A stretch of 36,110 bases of DNA from a virus. Taxonomy: Duplodnaviria; Heunggongvirae; Uroviricota; Caudoviricetes. The stretch lies in IMG/VR virus record IMGVR_UViG_2585427735_000020; one strand, given 5' to 3'. Position numbers and translations under genes: made by a program. The stretch's first letter is position 1. The number at the start of each line of letters is the position of its first letter. Below the pieces are notes generated by a model. It was not told the origin of the DNA, made no database searches, and worked only from the letters and a program-made list of their open reading frames with translations. Positions 6,270 to 29,064 of this stretch are shown here, one piece after another.

Positions 6270-6451
6270 AAGCGGGGAGTGGTCTTCAAAATGCTCCTGT
6301 AGCATTACGTGTAGACTTATAATAGAAATTATATACAAATCAATAAGTTATTTTTGTTTTGTATTATGTGTTGATGCTTTGGTTTCATAATGTAAAAATT
6401 ATCAGAAATTCTCTGCTTGTAGTTTCGTCATATAACGAAAGGGATTGCTTA

Positions 6452-9400
6452 ATGTTTAATTCTTATACTGAATTTGTAAAGTCTTTGGTATTGGATATTC
6501 GGAAAGGTAAAGACGTTAGTTTTCTTCTGGGGTCAGCCGTGAGTTGCTCGCCGGAGGGGAATGGGGTACCGGGCGTTTCAGGGATGAATGATATTCTGCG
6601 GCAATATATGATTGATTTAGATATTTATGATGGCTTTGAAAGTAACATAATCGGTTTAAGTGAAACTGATAAATATCAAAAAAGTTTCGAATACCTTTTG
6701 AAGGTAGGTGATCAAGATGAAGTTAAAGAAATAATGGCTCTTGCAATGAATAATGCAAGGAGCGGCGACAAATGGTTAATTACTAAATCACTTGATGATT
6801 TTTCAAGGCTTATTTCAGAAACTAGCATTAAAGTAAAATGCATACTTACAACAAATTTTGATCCATTGATTGAAGAGGCATTGTTTAGAGTAAATAGAAA
6901 TTGTAATGTACATAATCTTATTGTAGATCAACCAATTGGTAGCGTTACCAGCTATTCAGGCGAATCCATTCCCGTAGTGCATTTACATGGAGTTTGGGAT
7001 GGAGATACTATGCATACTCAAACTCAGCTTTCTTCATTGAGGAAAAAAATTGAGTTGTCAATAAAAAATATATTGGATACAAGTAAATTATATGTTATTG
7101 GATATGCAGGTTGGGATGATGTTTTTCTACAGGCGTTAAGAAACATCGTCCATGAGTTTCAGCCAAGTTATAATGTTAGATGGGGTTTTTATAAAAACTC
7201 AATTGATGATGTGAGTAAAGAACATTCACGATTGATTGAAATTATTCAACCAGCGCTTGTTAATGCTCGTTTTCAAGGATATGTTGGGGTTGACTGTAAT
7301 ACATACTTTGAAGATGCTTTGGCTGAGATTAGTAAAAAAAAACAATTAAGTAAGTTTGTTGTAAAAAAAACTGGATTACAGCCGATAACAGAAAGCATAG
7401 TTATTTCGCTGAGACCCTATAACCTTTCAGTTGAGCCTGCGCATGATATAATTAGATTAGTAGAGCAAAAAAAAGCCACTGATTATTTAAATAATAACAA
7501 TCATTTTGAGCTTGTTTCTGGTTGGGGATACGGAAAAGCAGGTTTTTTATATTCTTTTATTCATGATGAATTTTATGATTTCACATGTTATTATAGTGAT
7601 GTCAATGGATTGACTGAATCTCGTGATATTGAAGTTAAAATAAAACAGGATATCGGTATCGATATTGCAACCTTCATATCTAATAATGGATTAGGAAAGC
7701 GGATTTTAATTCTTGATAACATAGCCAGACTTCCTCCATCAACTAAAGCTTTCTTTTCTGAGATTGCGAAATTATCATCAGATCTTAGTTCTGGTGTGAA
7801 AGTTATTTTTGTATCAGCGACATGTAACGGGATATGCTCTGGTATAGTGGAATTACAGCCTTTATCTTTAGATGATATAAAGGAGTATATTAAAGTTGGC
7901 ACTGATATTACTGAAATAAAAAGAGAGAAACTTGATAGGTTGTATGAAATAACAAATGGAATACCTTTAAAATTAGATAAGGTTAAAGAGTATTATGAGT
8001 TAATGTCATTTGATGAAGTCCTTGATGCAGGGAATATTGTTGTTTCGGCAGAGGGAACAAATACGGACATTCCACACTACATATCCAAGCAAATAAACGA
8101 GATTAGAAGTGATAATAGAAAACTATATTCATTACTATGCATTTTCTCTATGCTTGAATATGGGGAGAAATTGACAAATATTCGCTCTTATTATTCATCG
8201 TATGATTTTCATTTTGATGATTTCGCAAAACTAGAAAGATATGGTCTGATTTATACAATTACAAAGGATAATTATAAAATATTAAGGATATCACCAGTTG
8301 TTAGTGATTTTGTAAAGCAGGGTATGGATCCTAACCAACGGTATGAACTTGTAAAAAAATCCCTAGGACTTTGTATCGGTAGCGATTGGATGTCAGGGAA
8401 AGTGAGAGTCTCTCCTACAGTGAAGATGATGCTTGAAAGCACGGAGTTTTATCCTGGAAATGTCCATTCAGCTATTAGTTCATACTTTTCATTAATAGAT
8501 ATTAATAATTATGATCGAGAAGTCAAATCATTAATACATGTTTCTATAGGATATTGCATCTTTTTAAAGAGTGCATGTTACTATAAAGAACTCGTCGCAT
8601 TTTCTCGGATGCTTTATTCTAATATTTCTCATTTGGATATTCTTGATAAATTTAGGGCTGCGTATTTTTTGGCTACAAGTTTAAGAATGATTGATGAGGT
8701 TGAACAAAGTGTTGAATTTATTGAGCCTTTAAGTGATGAGTTCGAGGCAAAAGAGTTTTGTCAAAAGGAATATTATTTTAAAATGCTTGATAATATTATG
8801 ATGGCATGCTCTGAATATAATGATGAAAAAGCACGAAAATACGCAATAAAATTAAAAAAGATAGCTCCAAAGTCTTCTAGTTATTATATCAATGCTGAAG
8901 TTCATTTGGCTGACGAATTGTCTCATGGTAAAAGGGTTAATAAGCTTATTTCTCTCGAGAAAAAGTCCCGAGCTGCTGGGTATAACACGCTGGCTAATAA
9001 TATTAGCATTAAACTTCATTATTTGTTTTCTGGTTCATCTTTCAAATATATTGATAATGCCATAAAAAATGAAGGGGGAGTGTATACTAAGGCCAGGGCG
9101 TTACTTGTTAAGTATGAAGAGTTGGTACGTTGCGGAGAGTTTGAAAAAATTGATGCGGAGGGGGTGAGGGAATTAAAGGCCGTTTATGATTATTTGTTCT
9201 TGCAGCGATTAGATGAGCTTTTTAACAGATGTACCGATGTGTTATGGCAGCTTATGAAAGCGTATCGGGATGTTAATGGCTTATACTACTTATTTAAGCG
9301 TGGTTCTGTAATTTGGCGTGTAACCTCATCTTATGATAAAGAGTTAGAATATGCTAAGGAGTTGAATGAGCAACAGTTTGATATCAGTGGAGGAGGTGAT

Positions 9401-9487
9401 GATATGAAATATTTATCAATCAGACTGAGTTTTTTGGCACTAAAGGTGGAGCGAGATAAGTGTCTGATTGATGCTCCAACATTGTAA
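6452..9487 (+). CDS. Cargo protein, 1011 aa: N-terminal SIR2-like domain + STAND-like NTPase core + C-terminal helical repeats (SIR2-STAND/Avs5-like or DSR-like candidate defence protein)
   Basis: ATG 6452 with GAAAGGGA SD; SIR2 motifs FLLGSAVS...GVPG, TTNFD (6848..6862), HLHG (6980..6991), IGYAGWDD; then GWGYGKAG (7520..7543), ILILDN (about 7700..7720), GIPLKL (7958..7975); AT-rich, replaces tin/old between A and cos. Confidence 0.6.
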   Translation: MFNSYTEFVKSLVLDIRKGKDVSFLLGSAVSCSPEGNGVPGVSGMNDILRQYMIDLDIYDGFESNIIGLSETDKYQKSFEYLLKVGDQDEVKEIMALAMNNARSGDKWLITKSLDDFSRLISETSIKVKCILTTNFDPLIEEALFRVNRNCNVHNLIVDQPIGSVTSYSGESIPVVHLHGVWDGDTMHTQTQLSSLRKKIELSIKNILDTSKLYVIGYAGWDDVFLQALRNIVHEFQPSYNVRWGFYKNSIDDVSKEHSRLIEIIQPALVNARFQGYVGVDCNTYFEDALAEISKKKQLSKFVVKKTGLQPITESIVISLRPYNLSVEPAHDIIRLVEQKKATDYLNNNNHFELVSGWGYGKAGFLYSFIHDEFYDFTCYYSDVNGLTESRDIEVKIKQDIGIDIATFISNNGLGKRILILDNIARLPPSTKAFFSEIAKLSSDLSSGVKVIFVSATCNGICSGIVELQPLSLDDIKEYIKVGTDITEIKREKLDRLYEITNGIPLKLDKVKEYYELMSFDEVLDAGNIVVSAEGTNTDIPHYISKQINEIRSDNRKLYSLLCIFSMLEYGEKLTNIRSYYSSYDFHFDDFAKLERYGLIYTITKDNYKILRISPVVSDFVKQGMDPNQRYELVKKSLGLCIGSDWMSGKVRVSPTVKMMLESTEFYPGNVHSAISSYFSLIDINNYDREVKSLIHVSIGYCIFLKSACYYKELVAFSRMLYSNISHLDILDKFRAAYFLATSLRMIDEVEQSVEFIEPLSDEFEAKEFCQKEYYFKMLDNIMMACSEYNDEKARKYAIKLKKIAPKSSSYYINAEVHLADELSHGKRVNKLISLEKKSRAAGYNTLANNISIKLHYLFSGSSFKYIDNAIKNEGGVYTKARALLVKYEELVRCGEFEKIDAEGVRELKAVYDYLFLQRLDELFNRCTDVLWQLMKAYRDVNGLYYLFKRGSVIWRVTSSYDKELEYAKELNEQQFDISGGGDDMKYLSIRLSFLALKVERDKCLIDAPTL

Positions 9488-21475: not shown

Positions 21476-23794
21476 ATGAGCACAAAATTCAGAACCGTTA
21501 TCACCACTGCCGGTGCAGCAAAGCTGGCAGCGGCAACCGCACCGGGAGGGCGGAAGGTCAACATTACCACGATGGCCGTCGGGGATGGCGGTGGTAAATT
21601 GCCTGTCCCGGATGCCGGACAGACCGGGCTTATCCACGAAGTCTGGCGACATGCGCTGAACAAAATCAGCCAGGACAAACGAAACAGTAATTATATTATC
21701 GCAGAGCTGGTTATTCCGCCGGAGGTGGGCGGTTTCTGGATGCGTGAGCTTGGCCTGTACGATGATGCGGGAACGTTAATTGCTGTGGCGAACATGGCCG
21801 AAAGTTATAAGCCAGCTCTTGCCGAAGGCTCAGGGCGTTCGCAGACCTGCCGTATGGTCATCATCGTCAGCAGTGTGACCTCAGTGGCGCTGACCATTGA
21901 CACCACAACGGTGATGGCGACGCAGGATTACGTTGATGACAAAATTGCAGAGCATGAACAGTCACGACGTCACCCGGACGCCTCGCTGACCGCAAAAGGT
22001 TTTACTCAGTTAAGCAATGCGACCAACAGCACGTCTGAAACACTGGCCGCAACGCCGAAAGCGGTAAAGGCCGCGTATGATCTTGCTAACGGGAAATACA
22101 CTGCGCAGGATGCCACCACAGCGCGAAAAGGTCTTGTCCAGCTCAGTAGCGCCACCAACAGCACGTCTGAAACGCTCGCCGCAACACCAAAAGCGGTAAA
22201 GGCAGCATATGACCTTGCTAACGGGAAATACACTGCACAGGACGCCACCACAGCGCGAAAAGGTCTTGTCCAGCTCAGTAGCGCCACCAACAGCGATTCT
22301 GAAACGCTTGCGGCAACGCCAAAGGCGGTTAAGACAGCGTATGACCTTGCTAACGGGAAATACACTGCACAGGACGCCACCACGGCGCGGAAAGGTCTTG
22401 TCCAGCTCAGTAGCGCCACCAACAGTGATTCTGAAACGCTGGCCGCAACATCAAAAGCGGTGAAGTCTGCCTATGACAATGCTGAAAAACGTCTTCAGAA
22501 AGATCAGAACGGTGCGGATATTCCGGGAAAGGATACCTTCACGAAAAATATCGGTGCCTGTCGTGCTTATAGCGGCGCTTTGAGCACTGAAGCCGGAAAC
22601 TGGACAACCGCTCAGTTTATTGAATGGCTGGATTCCCGTGGTGCATTTAATCATCCGTACTGGATGTGCAAAGGCTCATGGTCATATGCAAATAACAAAA
22701 TCATTACGGATACCGGATGTGGTGATATCCACCTGGATGGTTGTGTCGTCGAGGTCATGGGAACTAAATCTGCAATCACTATCCGAGTGACCACGCCGAC
22801 AACATCAAGTGGTGGCGGTACAACCAGCGCGCAATTCACTTACATTAATCATGGGGACGGCTACTCCCCCGGCTGGCGTCGTGACTGGAATCGTCAGGGC
22901 GACTCAATGACCGGAACGATTAATCAGGATGGCGGAAGCCAGAATGCCTATATGTCTACGGCCTTATGTTCAGGCACCAGAGGCGGCAAAAAATATCTCA
23001 GAAAGTTTCGTGGTGGAGAAGGAGACACTATCTGGCATGAAACAGTACAGGGCGGGGTAGTTCGCTGGGCGACTGGTAATACTGATGCTCAGGAAGAATT
23101 ATCACTCAGCTCCGCTTATGGTCTCCGTTCAAGAGGTGAGATTACATCACTCAGTGCTAATGGTCTGCGCATTGCTTATGGCAATTATGGTTTCTTTATC
23201 AGGAATGATGGCAGCAGCACTTATTTTATGTTGACTAAATCAGGTGACAGATTAGGCAGTTATAATAATTTAAGACCGCTGATTATAAATGATGCCACGG
23301 GTGCTGTATCAATGGGGCATGGCCTGAATGTTACTGGTGATATTGTCTCAAGTACCAAAGTACGTGCCGGTAGCGGGAAAAAATTCACGGTCAGCAGCAG
23401 TAATACATCCACGAAGGAAGCCGCATTCAATTTGTGGGGAAACTCAAGTCGTCCGGTGGTGGCTGAATTAGGTGATGATGCAGGCTGGCATTTTTACAGT
23501 CAGAGAAATACAGATAACAGCATCACTTTTGCTGTTAACGGGCAGGTATCACCATCTAACTATGGCAACTTTGATTCACGCTATGTCCGGGATATCCGGC
23601 TTGGTGGTGCTGCCACATACAAACCTGCGAACAATGGCATGACATGGACACATCAGGCACCGTCCGGGTGTGTATATTCCGGCATTATTGTTCAGGATAC
23701 CGGCTCAAACTCTGCCGATAACATTGGTGGCATATATTACAGACCGGTGCAGAAATACATTAACGGGACATGGTATAACGTGGCGCAGGTATAA
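21476..23794 (+). CDS. H: Tail fibre protein gpH, 772 aa, with internal tandem repeats
   Basis: Conserved N-terminal tail-fibre region, then 132-nt repeats, then a lower-GC C-terminal receptor-binding region. Confidence 0.85.
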   Translation: MSTKFRTVITTAGAAKLAAATAPGGRKVNITTMAVGDGGGKLPVPDAGQTGLIHEVWRHALNKISQDKRNSNYIIAELVIPPEVGGFWMRELGLYDDAGTLIAVANMAESYKPALAEGSGRSQTCRMVIIVSSVTSVALTIDTTTVMATQDYVDDKIAEHEQSRRHPDASLTAKGFTQLSNATNSTSETLAATPKAVKAAYDLANGKYTAQDATTARKGLVQLSSATNSTSETLAATPKAVKAAYDLANGKYTAQDATTARKGLVQLSSATNSDSETLAATPKAVKTAYDLANGKYTAQDATTARKGLVQLSSATNSDSETLAATSKAVKSAYDNAEKRLQKDQNGADIPGKDTFTKNIGACRAYSGALSTEAGNWTTAQFIEWLDSRGAFNHPYWMCKGSWSYANNKIITDTGCGDIHLDGCVVEVMGTKSAITIRVTTPTTSSGGGTTSAQFTYINHGDGYSPGWRRDWNRQGDSMTGTINQDGGSQNAYMSTALCSGTRGGKKYLRKFRGGEGDTIWHETVQGGVVRWATGNTDAQEELSLSSAYGLRSRGEITSLSANGLRIAYGNYGFFIRNDGSSTYFMLTKSGDRLGSYNNLRPLIINDATGAVSMGHGLNVTGDIVSSTKVRAGSGKKFTVSSSNTSTKEAAFNLWGNSSRPVVAELGDDAGWHFYSQRNTDNSITFAVNGQVSPSNYGNFDSRYVRDIRLGGAATYKPANNGMTWTHQAPSGCVYSGIIVQDTGSNSADNIGGIYYRPVQKYINGTWYNVAQV
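21995..22500 (+). repeat. In-frame tandem repeat inside H: 132-nt (44-aa) unit, about 3.7 copies
   Basis: Units start at 21995, 22127, 22259, 22391; unit is KGLVQLSSATNS(T/D)SETLAATPKAVKAAYDLANGKYTAQDATTAR. Confidence 0.85.
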
Positions 23795-23797
23795 TTT

Positions 23798-24325
23798 ATG
23801 CAGCATTTGATAAATATAACGGTGGGTAATCCAAAAACGGTTGAACAATATCAATTGACAAAGGACTTTGATGTTGTCTGGTTTTTTTCAGAAGATGGTA
23901 AGAACTGGTACGAAGAACAAAAGTATTTTGCTGATGACACGATAAAAATAGCGTACGACAAAGATAATATTATCCGCTATGTGGAAAAGGATGTGACAGC
24001 TATCAGACCAGATGGATTAAGTGTGGTTGAAGTGGCGGATATTACTGCTAACCGACGGGCGGACATTTCAGGGAACTGGATGTTTAAGGACGGCAAAGTG
24101 ATTAAACGCATTTATACGGCAGAGGAATTGCAGCAGCAGGCAGAAAACCGGAAAGCCAGACTTCTTGCAGATGCTGAATCCGTGATTTTGCCACTGGAGC
24201 GCGCTGTCAGGCTGAACATGGCAACAGATGAGGAGCGTAGCCGACTGGAAGCATGGGAACGCTACAGTGTTCTGGTCAGCCGTGTGGATCCTGCAAATCC
24301 TGAATGGCCGGAAATGCCGCAATAA
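23798..24325 (+). CDS. G: Tail fibre assembly chaperone gpG, 175 aa
   Basis: 175 aa immediately after H. Confidence 0.8.
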
Positions 24326-24360
24326 GTTGTATAAGCTCTGGTGTGAGATTACATATCTAT

Positions 24361-24410
24361 GGCACAGAGTAAAGCCTAATCTGACAGTCCGCTCTGTGCC
24401 AAGAGCGGAC
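24361..24410 (+). terminator. Two overlapping, mutually exclusive 9-bp hairpins downstream of G (possible terminator)
   Basis: GGCACAGAG(24361..24369)/CTCTGTGCC(24392..24400) and GTCCGCTCT(24387..24395)/AGAGCGGAC(24402..24410); no clear U-tract. Confidence 0.3.
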
Positions 24411-24734
24411 GTTACTACTACTCGACCTAAAGTAAAGTAATTGTACTCATTAAATAGTGGTAATTGGGTCTGGTGCTTAATCGAACGAAATCTCATGTTA
24501 GGCGAAAAAAACGTCTGAAAAATCGATTAACACATACACCTGTGTACTATGGCCGTTATTCAATTTAAAAGGAACCATTTCCGATATGATTCACTGTCCA
24601 TAATGTTTTGATTTATTAAAAAAGAGCCTTAGAGTGTGAAACCATTACGTTGAGTGGCGAACACCATTAATAAATTCTGCTTATACTTACAGCATATATT
24701 ATGTTCACGTCATATAACCATGGCAAATAAGATA

Positions 24735-24763
24735 TTGCACATCAAGCATGATTATGATAGTGA
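24735..24763 (+). promoter_or_regulatory. Candidate sigma70-like promoter for the first cargo-2 gene
   Basis: TTGCAC (24735..24740) with TATGAT/TAGTGA-like hexamers 13-18 bp downstream in an AT-rich intergenic region; weak. Confidence 0.2.
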
Positions 24764-24800
24764 TTACAAAAATGAAGAATCTTAGATAAAGGATTAGTAA

Positions 24801-25736
24801 GTGGTTACATATAATTCAATGTTGTTACCCCCCCCTAAATCTTGGGACGAATTTGAGGATATGTGCAAAAGTTCATTCCAACTGCGATGGTCCAATCCTA
24901 ATCTGAACAGACATGGACGGTCAGGGCAGCGGCAGGATGGAGTTGATGTATATGGTGATGACTCTCTTGGGCGTTTCGTTGGAATTCAGTGTAAAAATAC
25001 AGTATCAGGAATCAGTACGGCGACAATCGATGATGAATTACTCAAGGCTGAAAAATTTCGCCCAAAAATTACGGTTCTTTACATCGCTACGACAGCGCCC
25101 AGGGATGTTAGCATTCAGCGCTATGTAAGAACACTCAATGATGCCAGACAATTAAAAGGCCTGTTTCCTGTCGATGTGGTTTTCTGGGAGGATATTAGCT
25201 TTGATTTAAGCAAAGACCCAGCTGTACTCAAAATGTACTACCCGCAAATGTTCGAACGACACCAACCGACGAGGGAAGAATTTTTGCGCAAGAGAGATAT
25301 CTCAAATTTGTCGACATTGTTGAATGTTATTGATTTTCATTCAACAATAGACCATTTGCAGTGGGGCGCAAAATACATTCATTCATTAATTATTGAAGAA
25401 TACGATAATATTTTGAACATTTTAAACTCACCTGTTTTTCAACTGAATGATACAGCTTTAAAGAATGTTACAATTGATTTTGCAACGGCCTGGCGTGATC
25501 TAATTATCTTGTTTAGAAAAGCTCCATATAATTATTCAGCACCAAATGATACTTTTAGTTTTATAAATCCCGGTGACCACTGTCGAAATCAGGAGGAAAG
25601 CGATTTATACGACGAAATCACGCATAGCATGAGTAATCTCAAAGATAAAATTAGTACTTTTTGTGACTTTATAAATAATCACTACCATGAAATAAACTTA
25701 ACCGAAACGAGCGCGCAAGCCAGGAAATATTATTAA
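24801..25736 (+). CDS. Cargo protein, 311 aa: Mrr-type PD-(D/E)xK restriction-endonuclease-like N-terminal domain + uncharacterised C-terminal domain
   Basis: GTG start 7 nt after AAAGGA; FEDM...RHGRSGQRQDGVDVYGDD...GRFVGIQCKNT (nt about 24912..24998) resembles the Mrr catalytic core (D...D...QxK); AT-rich, between G and FI. Confidence 0.55.
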   Translation: MVTYNSMLLPPPKSWDEFEDMCKSSFQLRWSNPNLNRHGRSGQRQDGVDVYGDDSLGRFVGIQCKNTVSGISTATIDDELLKAEKFRPKITVLYIATTAPRDVSIQRYVRTLNDARQLKGLFPVDVVFWEDISFDLSKDPAVLKMYYPQMFERHQPTREEFLRKRDISNLSTLLNVIDFHSTIDHLQWGAKYIHSLIIEEYDNILNILNSPVFQLNDTALKNVTIDFATAWRDLIILFRKAPYNYSAPNDTFSFINPGDHCRNQEESDLYDEITHSMSNLKDKISTFCDFINNHYHEINLTETSAQARKYY

Positions 25737-26518
25737 TACTTTTTTCTTAAGGGCTGCACTCATGGCCCTTAACACCGTTAGACTGTCATATTTTGCAATC
25801 GATACGCAGTTAGGTACTTTCTTGAAGTCCGTTCCTCGCTCATAGCTGACATTCAGCTCAATTAAATCGTCCACTTCGCTCCAACAGAAGGCGTAGCTAA
25901 TCATACTGTGTATTAAAGAAAGGAGAAACGATCATGTTGAGTACAAAAAACACGAAAGACCATGATAAGGAAAATATGCGTAGAGTGACTTAGTTTATTG
26001 ATTTAAATAATATTTATGGGGGTAAGTGCTTTGAATAAAAAAACAAAAATTGAGAAGATTTAGCTAGTGCCAAAATAATTTGGACACCGCCCGTCATCAG
26101 ACCCGCTACTACACTTATCACCCCAGCCCAAAAAGTTTCAATGAAACAAGATACATATAGTAGTACAACATGGCGGAATAATTTACTCATAGGCTTCTCC
26201 TTACTGACGTAATCGTTAAGTAACGTTGAGGTAACGGATAAATGCGACTATTGGGAGAGCTGTGATGAGAATTGTAGGCATAGGAATCGAACCTATGGAT
26301 GCACTAGCTAAATTCACTCTTCACGAATTATACAGCATTGTAGTGAGTTTGTAAATACACGCCCCAAAAGTCAATCAGTCCGATCCATGAATGTTGTGTC
26401 AGTACTACTAAAGTTAAACATGCTAAAATAGGTTCCCAATATTCGTGGGTACAATCACTATCTGTGTAACTGGCGGAAGCGCTGGCATAACGACGATGCC
26501 TATTCGGGGGGCTTTAAT

Positions 26519-27385
26519 ATGGTCCGTTTTAACTTACTAGAAAATGCGTTGGATTCAGTGGAAACCGGGCTGGACTACTTTAACAAAGCGCTAGAAGGGC
26601 ATGATCGACGTGACTACAAACAGTGCCTGCTTAACCTCTTTCAGGCCGCTGAGCTATTGTTGAAGGCCGTAGTTTCGCGCAATGGGTCTGGAGCGATTTT
26701 TAATCCAGCATCGCTTCAAGAAAAATGTGTGGATCCGGCGCATCCAACCGAGTCAGAATTACACCAGTGTAAATCTGTCAACGTCAACCAGCTTTGTAAG
26801 CTGTTAAAGACATATTACCCAGCCGAATTTTCTGAATCTGCATTACAAATGATGAAAACGGTGGGTCAGTTGCGTAATAACCTTCAGCATTTTGCCCTTG
26901 AGGTTCGTCCGCAAGAACTGGCAATGCAACTGAGTGAACTGTACCAACAAATTTTTCGTCCCGCATTCGTCATAATTCAGTCAGATGAGACCGAAAATTC
27001 ATGGAACTCTGATTTACGTCAAGACATCATCGCTCTTGAGCAACAATTCCTTGATATAACTGTTAACCAGGAATACACCCTTGCACTTTGTCCCGTTTGT
27101 GAGAGTTTTTCACATTTTATCCTTTACCAAGGTGAAAGCTTTCCGGCACGGACTCACTGTATCTGTTGTGGTTTCAGCCTGAATAATCTGCAAACTTGGG
27201 ATTTTCAGGAATGTCCTGAATGTAGTGTCCCATCCGTAATTTATTTACCGGAACAAAGGGTCGGTGTCTGTCTCTGGTATAAATGTGAATACAGCAAGAT
27301 GGATGGTTTTGTTCCTATGGAGCCTTGTGAATGTGGTGCATTCCGGATGGAAGGTCATTGCAGTAACTGCGATCTTGAGGAATAG
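26519..27385 (+). CDS. Cargo protein, 288 aa: HEPN-like helical N-terminal domain (Rx4H) + C-terminal multi zinc-ribbon domain
   Basis: ATG 26519 after a G-rich SD; LRNNLQH at 26873..26890; CPVC, CICC, CPEC, Cx4C, CEC, CSNC pairs across 27089..27370. Confidence 0.55.
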   Translation: MVRFNLLENALDSVETGLDYFNKALEGHDRRDYKQCLLNLFQAAELLLKAVVSRNGSGAIFNPASLQEKCVDPAHPTESELHQCKSVNVNQLCKLLKTYYPAEFSESALQMMKTVGQLRNNLQHFALEVRPQELAMQLSELYQQIFRPAFVIIQSDETENSWNSDLRQDIIALEQQFLDITVNQEYTLALCPVCESFSHFILYQGESFPARTHCICCGFSLNNLQTWDFQECPECSVPSVIYLPEQRVGVCLWYKCEYSKMDGFVPMEPCECGAFRMEGHCSNCDLEE

Positions 27386-27747
27386 TAAAATCGTCCGATG
27401 AGAATGTACAGCAGCCTGGTCGATGATTTCTTGATGAATCGCTGAATTATCCGGTATTACTTGACAACTAAATCGCACATTTCTGTTTCTGGCAATTTGA
27501 AAGGTTTACTCTATGCCCCAGAATTCAGCACATACATAAAAACACCATTTCAGAACGCGTCTTGATCCAAAGAACGACTGTATGATAGATAGGCGTCGTC
27601 GTGAGGACAGGAATGATCTACCCCCCGTTATTCATACAGAATGCTGTTAGTAATGTCCGCAGATCGCTCAAAGCAGACTGTCAGATTTGATAGCGTTTGG
27701 GCTATGTAAGTAGCCAGTTGGAGAATGAGTGAGTGCAAATCAGGACT

Positions 27748-27789
27748 GGCGGGGGGAATGGCCGCCCTTTTTTTTTTTTTTTTTTTTTT
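27748..27789 (+). terminator. GC hairpin followed by a 22-nt poly(T) tract (terminator-like, at the cargo-2 / late-operon boundary)
   Basis: GGCGG (27748..27752), 9-nt loop, CCGCC (27762..27766), then T x22 (27768..27789). Confidence 0.45.
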
Positions 27790-27873
27790 ATCCACTGACC
27801 AGCCAGGTCAAATAGCGTCTCATGCACTGCCCAACAGAAAATAGTTGCACCCATTAACCACGGAGTTAAACGG

Positions 27874-29064
27874 ATGAGTGACTATCATCACGGCGTGCAG
27901 GTGCTGGAGATTAACGACGGCACCCGCGTCATTTCCACCGTATCCACTGCCATTGTCGGCATGGTCTGCACGGCCAGCGATGCGGATGCGGGAACCTTCC
28001 CCCTCAATAAACCTGTGCTGATTACCAATGTGCAGAGCGCAATTGCAAAGGCCGGTAAAAAAGGCACGCTGGCGGCATCGTTGCAGGCCATCGCTGACCA
28101 GTCAAAACCGGTCACCGTTGTCGTGCGCGTGGAAGACGGCACCGGCGACGACGAAGAAACGAAACTCGCGCAGACTGTTTCCAATATCATCGGCACCACC
28201 GACGAAAACGGTCAGTACACCGGACTGAAAGCCCTGCTGGCGGCGGAGTCGGTAACCGGTGTTAAACCGCGTATTCTCGGTGTGCCGGGACTGGATACCA
28301 AAGAGGTGGCTGTTGCACTGGCATCCGTCTGTCAGAAGCTGCGCGCTTTCGGGTATATCAGCGCATGGGGCTGTAAAACCATTTCCGAGGTGAAAGCCTA
28401 CCGCCAGAATTTCAGCCAGCGTGAGCTGATGGTCATCTGGCCGGATTTCCTCGCATGGGATACGGTCACCAGTACCACCGCCACCGCGTATGCCACCGCC
28501 CGTGCGCTGGGGCTGCGCGCTAAAATCGACCAGGAGCAGGGCTGGCATAAAACGCTGTCCAATGTCGGGGTGAACGGTGTTACCGGCATCAGCGCCTCTG
28601 TATTCTGGGATTTGCAGGAGTCCGGCACCGATGCTGACCTGCTTAACGAGTCAGGCGTCACAACGCTGATTCGCCGTGACGGTTTCCGATTCTGGGGTAA
28701 CCGTACCTGCTCTGATGACCCGCTGTTCCTCTTTGAAAACTACACTCGCACCGCGCAGGTGCTGGCCGACACGATGGCTGAGGCGCACATGTGGGCGGTG
28801 GACAAGCCCATCACCGCAACGCTGATTCGCGACATCGTTGACGGCATCAATGCCAAATTCCGTGAGCTGAAAACAAACGGCTATATCGTGGATGCGACCT
28901 GCTGGTTCAGCGAAGAATCCAACGATGCGGAAACCCTTAAGGCCGGAAAACTGTATATCGACTACGACTATACTCCGGTGCCTCCTCTTGAAAACCTGAC
29001 CCTGCGCCAGCGTATTACCGATAAATACCTGGCAAATCTGGTCACCTCGGTTAACAGCAATTAA
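27874..29064 (+). CDS. FI: Contractile tail sheath protein gpFI, 396 aa
   Basis: 396 aa; GGAG SD; P2 order. Confidence 0.9.
   Translation: MSDYHHGVQVLEINDGTRVISTVSTAIVGMVCTASDADAGTFPLNKPVLITNVQSAIAKAGKKGTLAASLQAIADQSKPVTVVVRVEDGTGDDEETKLAQTVSNIIGTTDENGQYTGLKALLAAESVTGVKPRILGVPGLDTKEVAVALASVCQKLRAFGYISAWGCKTISEVKAYRQNFSQRELMVIWPDFLAWDTVTSTTATAYATARALGLRAKIDQEQGWHKTLSNVGVNGVTGISASVFWDLQESGTDADLLNESGVTTLIRRDGFRFWGNRTCSDDPLFLFENYTRTAQVLADTMAEAHMWAVDKPITATLIRDIVDGINAKFRELKTNGYIVDATCWFSEESNDAETLKAGKLYIDYDYTPVPPLENLTLRQRITDKYLANLVTSVNSN

Follow-up and report, generated by a model that had tools for sequence, protein, structure and literature searches.

Two candidate defence genes, probably acquired separately, in the Z/fun slot of a P2-like prophage

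When two nuclease-like genes lie close together in a defence hotspot of a phage, do they constitute one system or two? The question is raised by positions 24326-27873 of a 36,110-nt stretch of viral DNA (IMG/VR record IMGVR_UViG_2585427735_000020; the whole stretch is called the window here), a segment that lies, in a P2-like prophage, between G (tail fibre) and FI (sheath). Two open reading frames (ORFs) are found here on the same strand, 782 bp apart: g1 (24801..25736, +; 311 aa, GTG start) and g2 (26519..27385, +; 288 aa, ATG start). The original prediction, made from the letters alone, had placed both ORFs at these coordinates, within AT-rich foreign cargo of the P2 Z/fun slot. This is borne out, as the GC contrast, the position of fun(Z) and the alignment of the flanks with Z-region records all agree, to an extent well beyond chance. 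It had also read a DNase-like g1 and an RNase-like g2 as one module, and this failed the co-occurrence test: apart from a single near-identical island, the two are not found jointly, and all examined diverged homologues of one lack the other. From the comparisons described below, g1 and g2 would not be a pair but independent single-gene defence candidates.

The evidence comes mainly from the distribution of the genes. Among 5,426 complete E. coli genomes, g1 is present in 13 and g2 in 28. The 13 genomes carrying both, mostly enterotoxigenic E. coli (ETEC) strains, share one island that is at least 98.5% identical, while a 99.8%-identical g2 occurs without g1 in the other 15. A presence of the g2 half in about 300 genomes was ruled out by gene-specific searches, which gave the 28 genomes. 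Through tblastn over all fetched loci, g1 and g2 were found together only in islands at least 97% identical. Diverged homologues behave likewise. In the seven contexts of g1 homologues (85-52% identity), g2 does not occur within 8 kb, and the homologues of g2 (76-52% identity, eight contexts), which sit in other islands, have no g1 nearby. In S. marcescens, the lone g1 homologue is flanked by genes for LacI- and LysR-type regulators, and in Pantoea it lies at the ogr end of a 186/P2-like prophage; others, likewise lone genes, are found beside a Rep3-like gene on plasmid-like replicons of 85-93 kb, in a Vibrio island, and beside KwaA/KwaB (Kiwa) in S. ureilytica. A 313-aa protein without Pfam matches, encoded near the S. 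marcescens homologue of g2, was considered as a relative of g1 and proved to be unrelated.

In 2022, Vassallo et al. named the P2 Z/fun locus a second defence-enriched hotspot, with three validated systems there besides fun (PMC9519451); the other P2 hotspot (old/tin) is the subject of Rousset et al. 2022. The reference P2 has fun(Z) in this slot, between G and the pF promoter, and the genes annotated at this place in other E. coli strains encode a restriction endonuclease, a RES-family NAD+ phosphorylase, an HNH endonuclease, a SMEK-domain protein and a ‘lysogenic conversion protein’. In the window, g1, g2 and a 58-aa ORF on the opposite strand are all annotated ‘hypothetical protein’ by the Prokaryotic Genome Annotation Pipeline (PGAP). 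The island shares with Fun(Z) its slot and its inverted repeats, between G and the pF promoter/FI. However, Fun(Z) is a 527-aa protein encoded on the opposite strand, and neither g1 (BLASTP E=0.25) nor g2 (E=0.86) resembles it, as had been predicted.

The boundaries of the cargo were drawn by comparison with the GenBank Z-region records (Nilsson et al. 2004 entries). The match of the window to the P2 ‘Z-region’ records AJ512683/AJ512676 breaks off at about 24410 and resumes at 27664, which leaves about 24411-27663 as the variable cargo. Its GC fraction is 0.397 versus 0.516 in the remaining window, and that of the local tail-gene backbone is 0.55-0.60. A 40-nt inverted repeat bounds this cargo. 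The left arm (24378..24417) falls inside the ‘left inverted repeat’ of the two records and is 80% complementary to the right arm (27648..27687), which from 27664 aligns with their ‘right inverted repeat’ and with the reference P2. The outer core of the arm occurs a third time inside the cargo, as AGACTGTCAtATTT at 25780..25793 (+). This internal copy agrees with the right-arm end at 13 of 14 bases, and it is where the g1 cassette meets the g2 block. Over the whole 36-kb window and both strands, core matches with at most two mismatches are limited to three sites, namely the two arm ends and 25780-25793, and when the junction segment was shuffled 2000 times, a score as good as that of the internal copy was reached only 4 times. 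The simplest reading is that the island comprises two tandem cassettes, each ending in the right-arm core.

The g2 block (25825..27677, +) includes a spacer, the 58-aa ORF, the remnant of a lost partner gene, g2 and 30 nt of the right arm. It recurs without g1, 98.7% identical, at the ends of lambdoid prophages in E. coli, where it is preceded by genes for DUF2971, DUF4236 and S1 peptidase proteins (L002 and L003). The S1 peptidase was tried as a relative of g1 or of the lost partner and is unrelated to both. As a separate observation, these three cargo genes ahead of the g2 block (L002/L003:1751-5621) look like a further small defence island at a prophage end; the DUF2971 protein is similar to PADLOC PDC-S31, and the protease part of the S1 peptidase resembles those of RT-protease and Lamassu/Hachiman-associated proteins. 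Within the block, the hydrophobic 58-aa ORF (26014..26190, -) travels with g2. A Shine-Dalgarno sequence, AAGGAG, precedes the ATG of this ORF by 5 nt, and a sigma-70-like site, TTTACA-17-TATAAT (11/12), lies ahead of it at 26355-26327 (-). Its status as a gene is uncertain because a sister variant of the island has a 2-nt indel inside it. A 102-bp part of the spacer (25836-25937) is 93-94% identical to unannotated DNA on large (160-207 kb) E. coli plasmids and one chromosome.

On balance, the explanation that we favour as probable is a Z/fun ‘moron’ slot with two separately acquired, most likely separately acting cassettes, placed head to tail between inverted repeats. The comparisons show the gene structures, the folds, the conserved catalytic residues, the homologies, the separability of the two genes and the limits of the cassettes. 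For g1 and g2 alike, we infer an anti-phage function, together with the trigger, the substrates and abortive infection. The families of both genes are found in defence contexts, including Kiwa, CRISPR I-F, a HEC-04-like ATPase, RES and prophage hotspots. What, then, might each gene do on its own?

The GTG start of g1 is preferred because AAGGA is located 7 nt upstream and because the homologues start with ‘MPTxxxx’ six residues before a conserved LPPPKSW. The N-terminal domain (residues 1-155; 24801..25265, +) had been predicted to be an Mrr-type PD-(D/E)xK nuclease, and both the fold and the conserved motif agree with this. The fold carries a D...(Q/E)xK catalytic triad, with E17/E19, D49 and Q63-x-K65 as the putative catalytic residues. 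Numbered on the 311-aa protein, G42, Q43, Q45, G47, D49, Q63 and K65 do not vary across 61 homologues, and E17/E19 hardly do. In the model of g1 (predicted local distance difference test score, pLDDT, 92.5), the domains are confident singly, while their relative orientation is uncertain (predicted template modelling score, pTM, 0.55). The best structural matches of the nuclease domain include AspBHI, MspJI and the Mrr-like AF1548; the nuclease domain of Avs4 was also matched, and a viral structure library returned a match to this domain only. The family is under purifying selection: in comparison with the S. marcescens copy (85% identical), the ratio of non-synonymous to synonymous rates (dN/dS) is 0.30, and with a copy of 65% identity it is 0.12.

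The expectation that g1 is unlike any named defence system also held, with no PADLOC 2.0.0, Pfam or NCBIfam match to it; the only model it matches is a PHROG of unknown function. Individual members of its family match Mrr_cat_2 (8/61) or Mrr_cat (5/61), g1 itself neither, and some databases label its relatives ‘Restriction endonuclease type IV Mrr domain-containing’. None of the deposited phage genomes of the INPHARED set contains g1. Neither g1 nor g2 matches the PD-T4, PD-T7 and PD-lambda models, presuming that PADLOC 2.0.0 contains them. When the family profiles of both were compared with PDB sequences, nothing useful was returned except a TFIIB-like zinc ribbon for g2, and the accession numbers and PHROG ids of the two were not found in the searchable literature.

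The more unusual half of g1 is its C-terminal helical domain of ~155 aa (residues 156-311; 25266..25736, +), which belongs to no Pfam family and is proposed to be a sensor or regulatory module. Searched alone against 1.84 billion cluster representatives, it was found in 37 proteins only, and in the full-length matches among them it sits at the C-terminus. Its conserved core consists of D166 (31/31), F213, D217, W231, F254, P257-x-D259 and Y295-x-E297. The closer relatives carry the nuclease head of g1, and the distant ones carry other heads: a CAP12/Pycsar-type TIR domain (PF10137; 4/10 scanned proteins at the Pfam cut-off), an HNH motif (P0301), or hydrophobic N-termini with several segments (P0307) or one (P0310). 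When Mrr-fused C-terminal domains were aligned with the other-headed ones through hhalign, a probability of 99.8% was obtained (E=2.7e-30, 153 columns), and a reversed-sequence control gave E=0.13. This points solidly to a common ancestry of the domain across Mrr-, TIR-, HNH- and hydrophobic-headed proteins. As far as could be found, the domain has apparently not been described before.

The family thus presents one conserved non-catalytic domain with alternative toxic effector heads, a pattern which suggests that g1 may be a self-contained sensor-effector protein. It is because the C-terminal domain joins such alternative heads that g1 is read in this way, and not as a reader of DNA modification. 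The helical domain is best regarded as a sensor or switch since other proteins couple the same domain to TIR, HNH or membrane-spanning modules. The proposed mechanism would then couple an N-terminal Mrr-type PD-(D/E)xK DNase to a rare helical domain, which would sense a phage cue and activate the attached toxic effector.

The strongest competing view concerns the same domain. It holds that g1 is a type IV modification-dependent restriction endonuclease whose C-terminal domain binds modified phage DNA and thereby provides direct immunity. This we consider rather unlikely, even though modification-dependent enzymes (AspBHI, MspJI) are among the best matches of the nuclease domain, together with the Mrr-like AF1548, and the ‘type IV’ labels of some relatives point the same way. 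With the Mrr/MspJI/AspBHI enzymes (Mrr_cat, Mrr_cat_2), g1 shares the N-terminal fold, the D...QxK motif and its occurrence as a lone gene, as no methyltransferase gene lies beside it in any examined context. In contrast to them, its domain order is reversed, with the nuclease first; it fails the Pfam models, and it has no known DNA-reader domain. The C-terminal domain is an all-helical bundle with generic structural matches only, and no structural match to SRA, winged-helix or other known modified-DNA readers was found in it. Moreover, the same domain is common to HNH and membrane effectors, and it is joined to CAP12/Pycsar-type TIR domains and to hydrophobic N-termini as well. These last two kinds of head do not have DNA as their target, and a module directing them to DNA would hardly serve them.

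A sensor-effector reading of g1 recalls other known proteins. Its C-terminal domain with swappable heads (Mrr, TIR, HNH, transmembrane) is similar to the effectors of the cyclic-oligonucleotide-based anti-phage signalling system (CBASS) and Pycsar and to Avs/NLR-like proteins, with their Mrr, TIR and SIR2 heads. Unlike them, g1 is only 311 aa long, has no STAND nucleoside triphosphatase (NTPase), SAVED, STING or cyclic nucleotide monophosphate (cNMP)-binding domain and no cyclase gene nearby, and its C-terminal domain is an unclassified helical bundle. It can be suggested, tentatively, that g1 is the first of an undescribed family of compact one-protein sensors, in which the helical domain would recognize a phage component and trigger the attached toxic head. 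Such a protein might, with equal reserve, work without a cyclase, an NTPase or a second gene.

The second gene is of a more familiar kind. The predicted architecture of g2, an HEPN-like Rx4H motif followed by a Cys-rich zinc-ribbon tail, was confirmed, since the motifs are conserved and the fold is HEPN in a confident AlphaFold model (pLDDT 87.8, pTM 0.84). The HEPN domain (residues ~1-155, with R119-x4-H124) is followed by a linker helix and the Cys-rich part (~186-288). In 30 homologues, R119, N120, Q123 and H124 of the Rx4H motif are invariant, as are the Cys pairs 191/194, 214/217 and 232/235; the pairs 251/256, 270/272 and 281/284 are invariant or nearly so. These six CxxC-type pairs could form three zinc sites, and residues 228-269 resemble a TFIIB zinc ribbon (E=1.4e-3). 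The g2 family, too, is under purifying selection; the non-synonymous divergence (pN) is 0.13-0.34 with synonymous sites saturated, including between lineages lacking the partner gene described below.

The closest functional lead comes from HEC-08 (Hma-embedded candidate 08) of Payne et al., for which the tested protein is a 366-aa protein of E. coli ECOR52. It reduced plaquing in E. coli, and mutation of H128, the His of its Rx4-6H motif, abolished defence (bioRxiv 10.1101/2024.01.29.577857). The hidden Markov model (HMM) of HEC-08 in PADLOC matches g2 with a raw E-value of 4.6e-6 (g2 14-285 on profile positions 20-300 of 358). In direct comparison with the tested sequence, taken from Table S2 of Payne et al., pairwise identity is 21% over the HEPN domain, and the g2-family profile against this single sequence gives 95.9%. 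The two families align through hhalign at 98.5% (E=3.9e-15) over 212 columns covering the HEPN domain, the linker and the first three CxxC pairs. In this alignment, R119/H124 of g2 fall on the RxxxxH128 of HEC-08, and its first three pairs on C212/215, C239/242 and C253/256.

From these alignments, g2 and HEC-08 are distantly related (~20% identity) proteins of one architecture. Both are single polypeptides with an N-terminal DUF3644-type HEPN domain bearing Rx4-6H, followed by several C-terminal CxxC zinc-finger-like units, and in both cases the genes belong to Enterobacterales and lie on mobile or defence loci. The differences are that g2 is 78 residues shorter and has six Cys pairs (three putative zinc sites) against eight in HEC-08, and that the relatives of HEC-08 lie inside Hma or type I restriction-modification (R-M) loci, those of g2 on prophages and plasmids, ancestrally after a partner of ~362 aa. 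Since g2 is related to a protein whose role in defence has been validated, and is built in the same way, it is not of an undescribed type. The claim that the island holds undescribed genes therefore stands for g1, which matches no named or candidate model, and not for g2, a homologue of HEC-08 that also matches PDC-S64. Many homologues of HEC-08 (P0159-P0275) are named ‘hsdR’ in NCBI even though they are HEPN-zinc-finger proteins of ~366 aa; the label was probably carried over from the surrounding type I R-M loci.

PDC-S64, the best model match of g2 (E=3.7e-21), is an untested single-gene ‘phage defence candidate’ of PADLOC that was predicted from its embedding in BREX, DISARM and type I R-M loci, and by this name it was not found in the searchable literature. 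It has an HEPN N-terminus, as does g2. The match is, however, not full-length: the best stretch (g2 1-140) covers positions 1-130 of the 339 in the profile, the HEPN part, so the C-terminal halves differ. The HEPN/MNT toxin-antitoxin pairs (e.g. SO_3166, PDB 5yep; 7ae2) differ from g2 in other ways. g2 bears a zinc-ribbon tail of ~100 aa, no gene for an MNT nucleotidyltransferase antitoxin was found in the window or in the eight contexts of its homologues, and its ancestral neighbour encodes a 362-aa protein with merely a weakly DUF6364-like N-terminus. As for its mode of action, g2 would be an HEPN ribonuclease, probably with a composite Rx4H site formed as a dimer, and its C-terminal zinc-ribbon cluster would restrain or target the HEPN domain. 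Upon infection, RNA would be cleaved and phage growth stopped, probably at the expense of the cell.

The history of g2 involves a gene other than g1. In plasmid-like contigs of Klebsiella and Yersinia and in Serratia fonticola, a gene for a protein of ~362 aa ends 1-2 nt before the g2 homologue (L041:6911-7999, L043:6907-7998, L048:6911-7999). These partner proteins are 48-79% identical among themselves, belong to no Pfam family and are unrelated to g1; a weak N-terminal match to DUF6364 stays below the cut-off. In the window, the decayed last 15 codons of the partner persist at 26470..26517 (+). They read LAEALA*RRCLFGGL* against LSEALAGLRCLYGDL* in Yersinia (asterisks denote stops). Of the 15 codons, 10 are conserved; one stop interrupts the remnant, and its terminal stop, directly ahead of the g2 ATG, has kept its position. 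No similarity to the partner was found upstream of this remnant. Elsewhere, the last 93 codons of the partner are retained in Dickeya and six codons in Raoultella; it is frameshifted in the closest relative of g2 (L047) and absent in S. marcescens. These loci show that g2 was ancestrally the second gene of an operon, whose first gene has been deleted here. That the partner was a regulator or an antitoxin is a guess from the weak DUF6364 match. g2 is solo in the window, in S. marcescens and in Raoultella, and the purifying selection between partner-less lineages indicates that the solo form is maintained.

One more gene was noticed beside homologues of g2. It encodes an ATPase of 521-523 aa whose best PADLOC match is HEC-04 (ATPase-TOPRIM), and it adjoins them in Klebsiella, Dickeya and two Serratia species (L007:5137-6702(-), L036:8935-10500(-), L041:8929-10500(-), L048:8929-10500(-)). 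Between these loci it is 83-90% identical, more conserved than g2, and it is absent from the window. It may be a linked system or a conserved anchor of the island.

The loss of the partner also lends itself to a different explanation, according to which one or both genes do not serve defence: g2 would be the toxin left over after a toxin-antitoxin or addiction module had decayed, g1 would be a nuclease gene that is selfish or on the way to decay, and the hotspot would merely house the two. The repeated truncation, frameshift or absence of the operon partner is in line with this, as are the frequency of HEPN toxins in toxin-antitoxin pairs, the want of promoter evidence and the rarity of both genes in E. 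coli. Yet both ORFs are intact with conserved catalytic residues, and they are under purifying selection even where g2 has no partner. The anti-phage activity of its relative HEC-08 has been validated, both families recur in defence contexts, and an unopposed constitutive toxin could not be kept. This explanation is therefore judged improbable, more so than the type IV one.

Least probable is a single cooperative two-gene defence or toxin module, for while g1 and g2 share a strand and an island, nuclease pairings exist in known systems, and g2 accompanies g1 in every one of its 13 E. coli genomes and in all 6 IMG/VR contigs that carry g1, these joint occurrences are one near-identical island and count as a single event, no diverged homologue in the seven g1 and eight g2 contexts has the other gene within 8 kb, the gap of 782 bp holds a copy of the repeat core, a recombination joint and an opposite-strand ORF, the true ancestral partner of g2 is a different protein, and HEC-08 acts as a single gene.

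Several points weigh against the favoured explanation of two separate defence cassettes. No convincing sigma-70 promoter was seen upstream of either gene in the promoter scan. For g1, no Pfam family (E<=1), NCBIfam family or PADLOC 2.0.0 model, named or candidate, gave a match, and the sensor role of its C-terminal domain derives from domain swapping alone. For g2, the alignment with HEC-08 leaves out the far end of the Cys-rich tail, and with an identity of ~20% its function may differ from that of HEC-08. Since ancestors of g2 in at least four lineages had an upstream partner, the solo form might be impaired or differently regulated. The shallow divergence of the island variants gives no signal of selection, the synonymous:non-synonymous counts (1:6 and 1:3) being too low for interpretation. 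Finally, g2 is present in 13/13 of the E. coli genomes with g1, so cooperation within this one island is possible on genomics alone.

What does the island add to the existing picture? The hotspot was already known, as were the kind of protein to which g2 belongs, tested as HEC-08, and the ‘nuclease effector plus sensor domain’ theme of g1; the advance is overall an incremental one within a crowded field. Nevertheless, it corrects a tempting mistake, as neighbours in a hotspot need not be one system, and it depicts the P2 Z/fun slot as growing by the stacking of cassettes at copies of its own repeat. With g2, the HEC-08-type HEPN-zinc-ribbon defence would be extended to prophage cargo, and its branch, in which a partner gene was once present and was repeatedly lost, bears on how such RNases stay harmless. 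The C-terminal domain of g1 is a small and rare module common to nuclease, TIR, HNH and membrane effectors. g1 is the novel, uncharacterised part of the island and, at 311 aa, a tractable candidate for single-protein infection sensing that is worth experimental study.

The surroundings of the island are those of a P2-like tail region. On the left, the tail-fibre gene H (21476-23794) is followed by G (23798-24325), and on the right lies FI (27874-29064). An Rfam scan of 24000-28200 returned no RNA family, and in a promoter and terminator scan, promoter-like sites were not enriched in the region. In the conserved backbone flank upstream of pF/FI, a terminator-like hairpin with a run of 22 T is present at 27751..27789 (+; T run 27768-27789). 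The reference P2 has only TTTTCTTT where the window has the 22-T run after the conserved hairpin, and the length of this homopolymer could differ among isolates.

Two further observations were made elsewhere in the window. A 1042-aa ORF (6359-9487, +) contains a SIR2-like region at residues ~157-326 (PADLOC Aga_SIR2/pAgo-associated models, E=1e-15). Judged by the order of ORFs only, it apparently lies in the other P2 hotspot, between a putative replication gene and the portal gene, and it is probably the ‘cargo island 1’ of the original prediction. The tail-fibre gene H contains, at 22022-22477, 3.5 tandem copies of a 132-bp unit (90% matches) that encode a repeated 44-aa motif.

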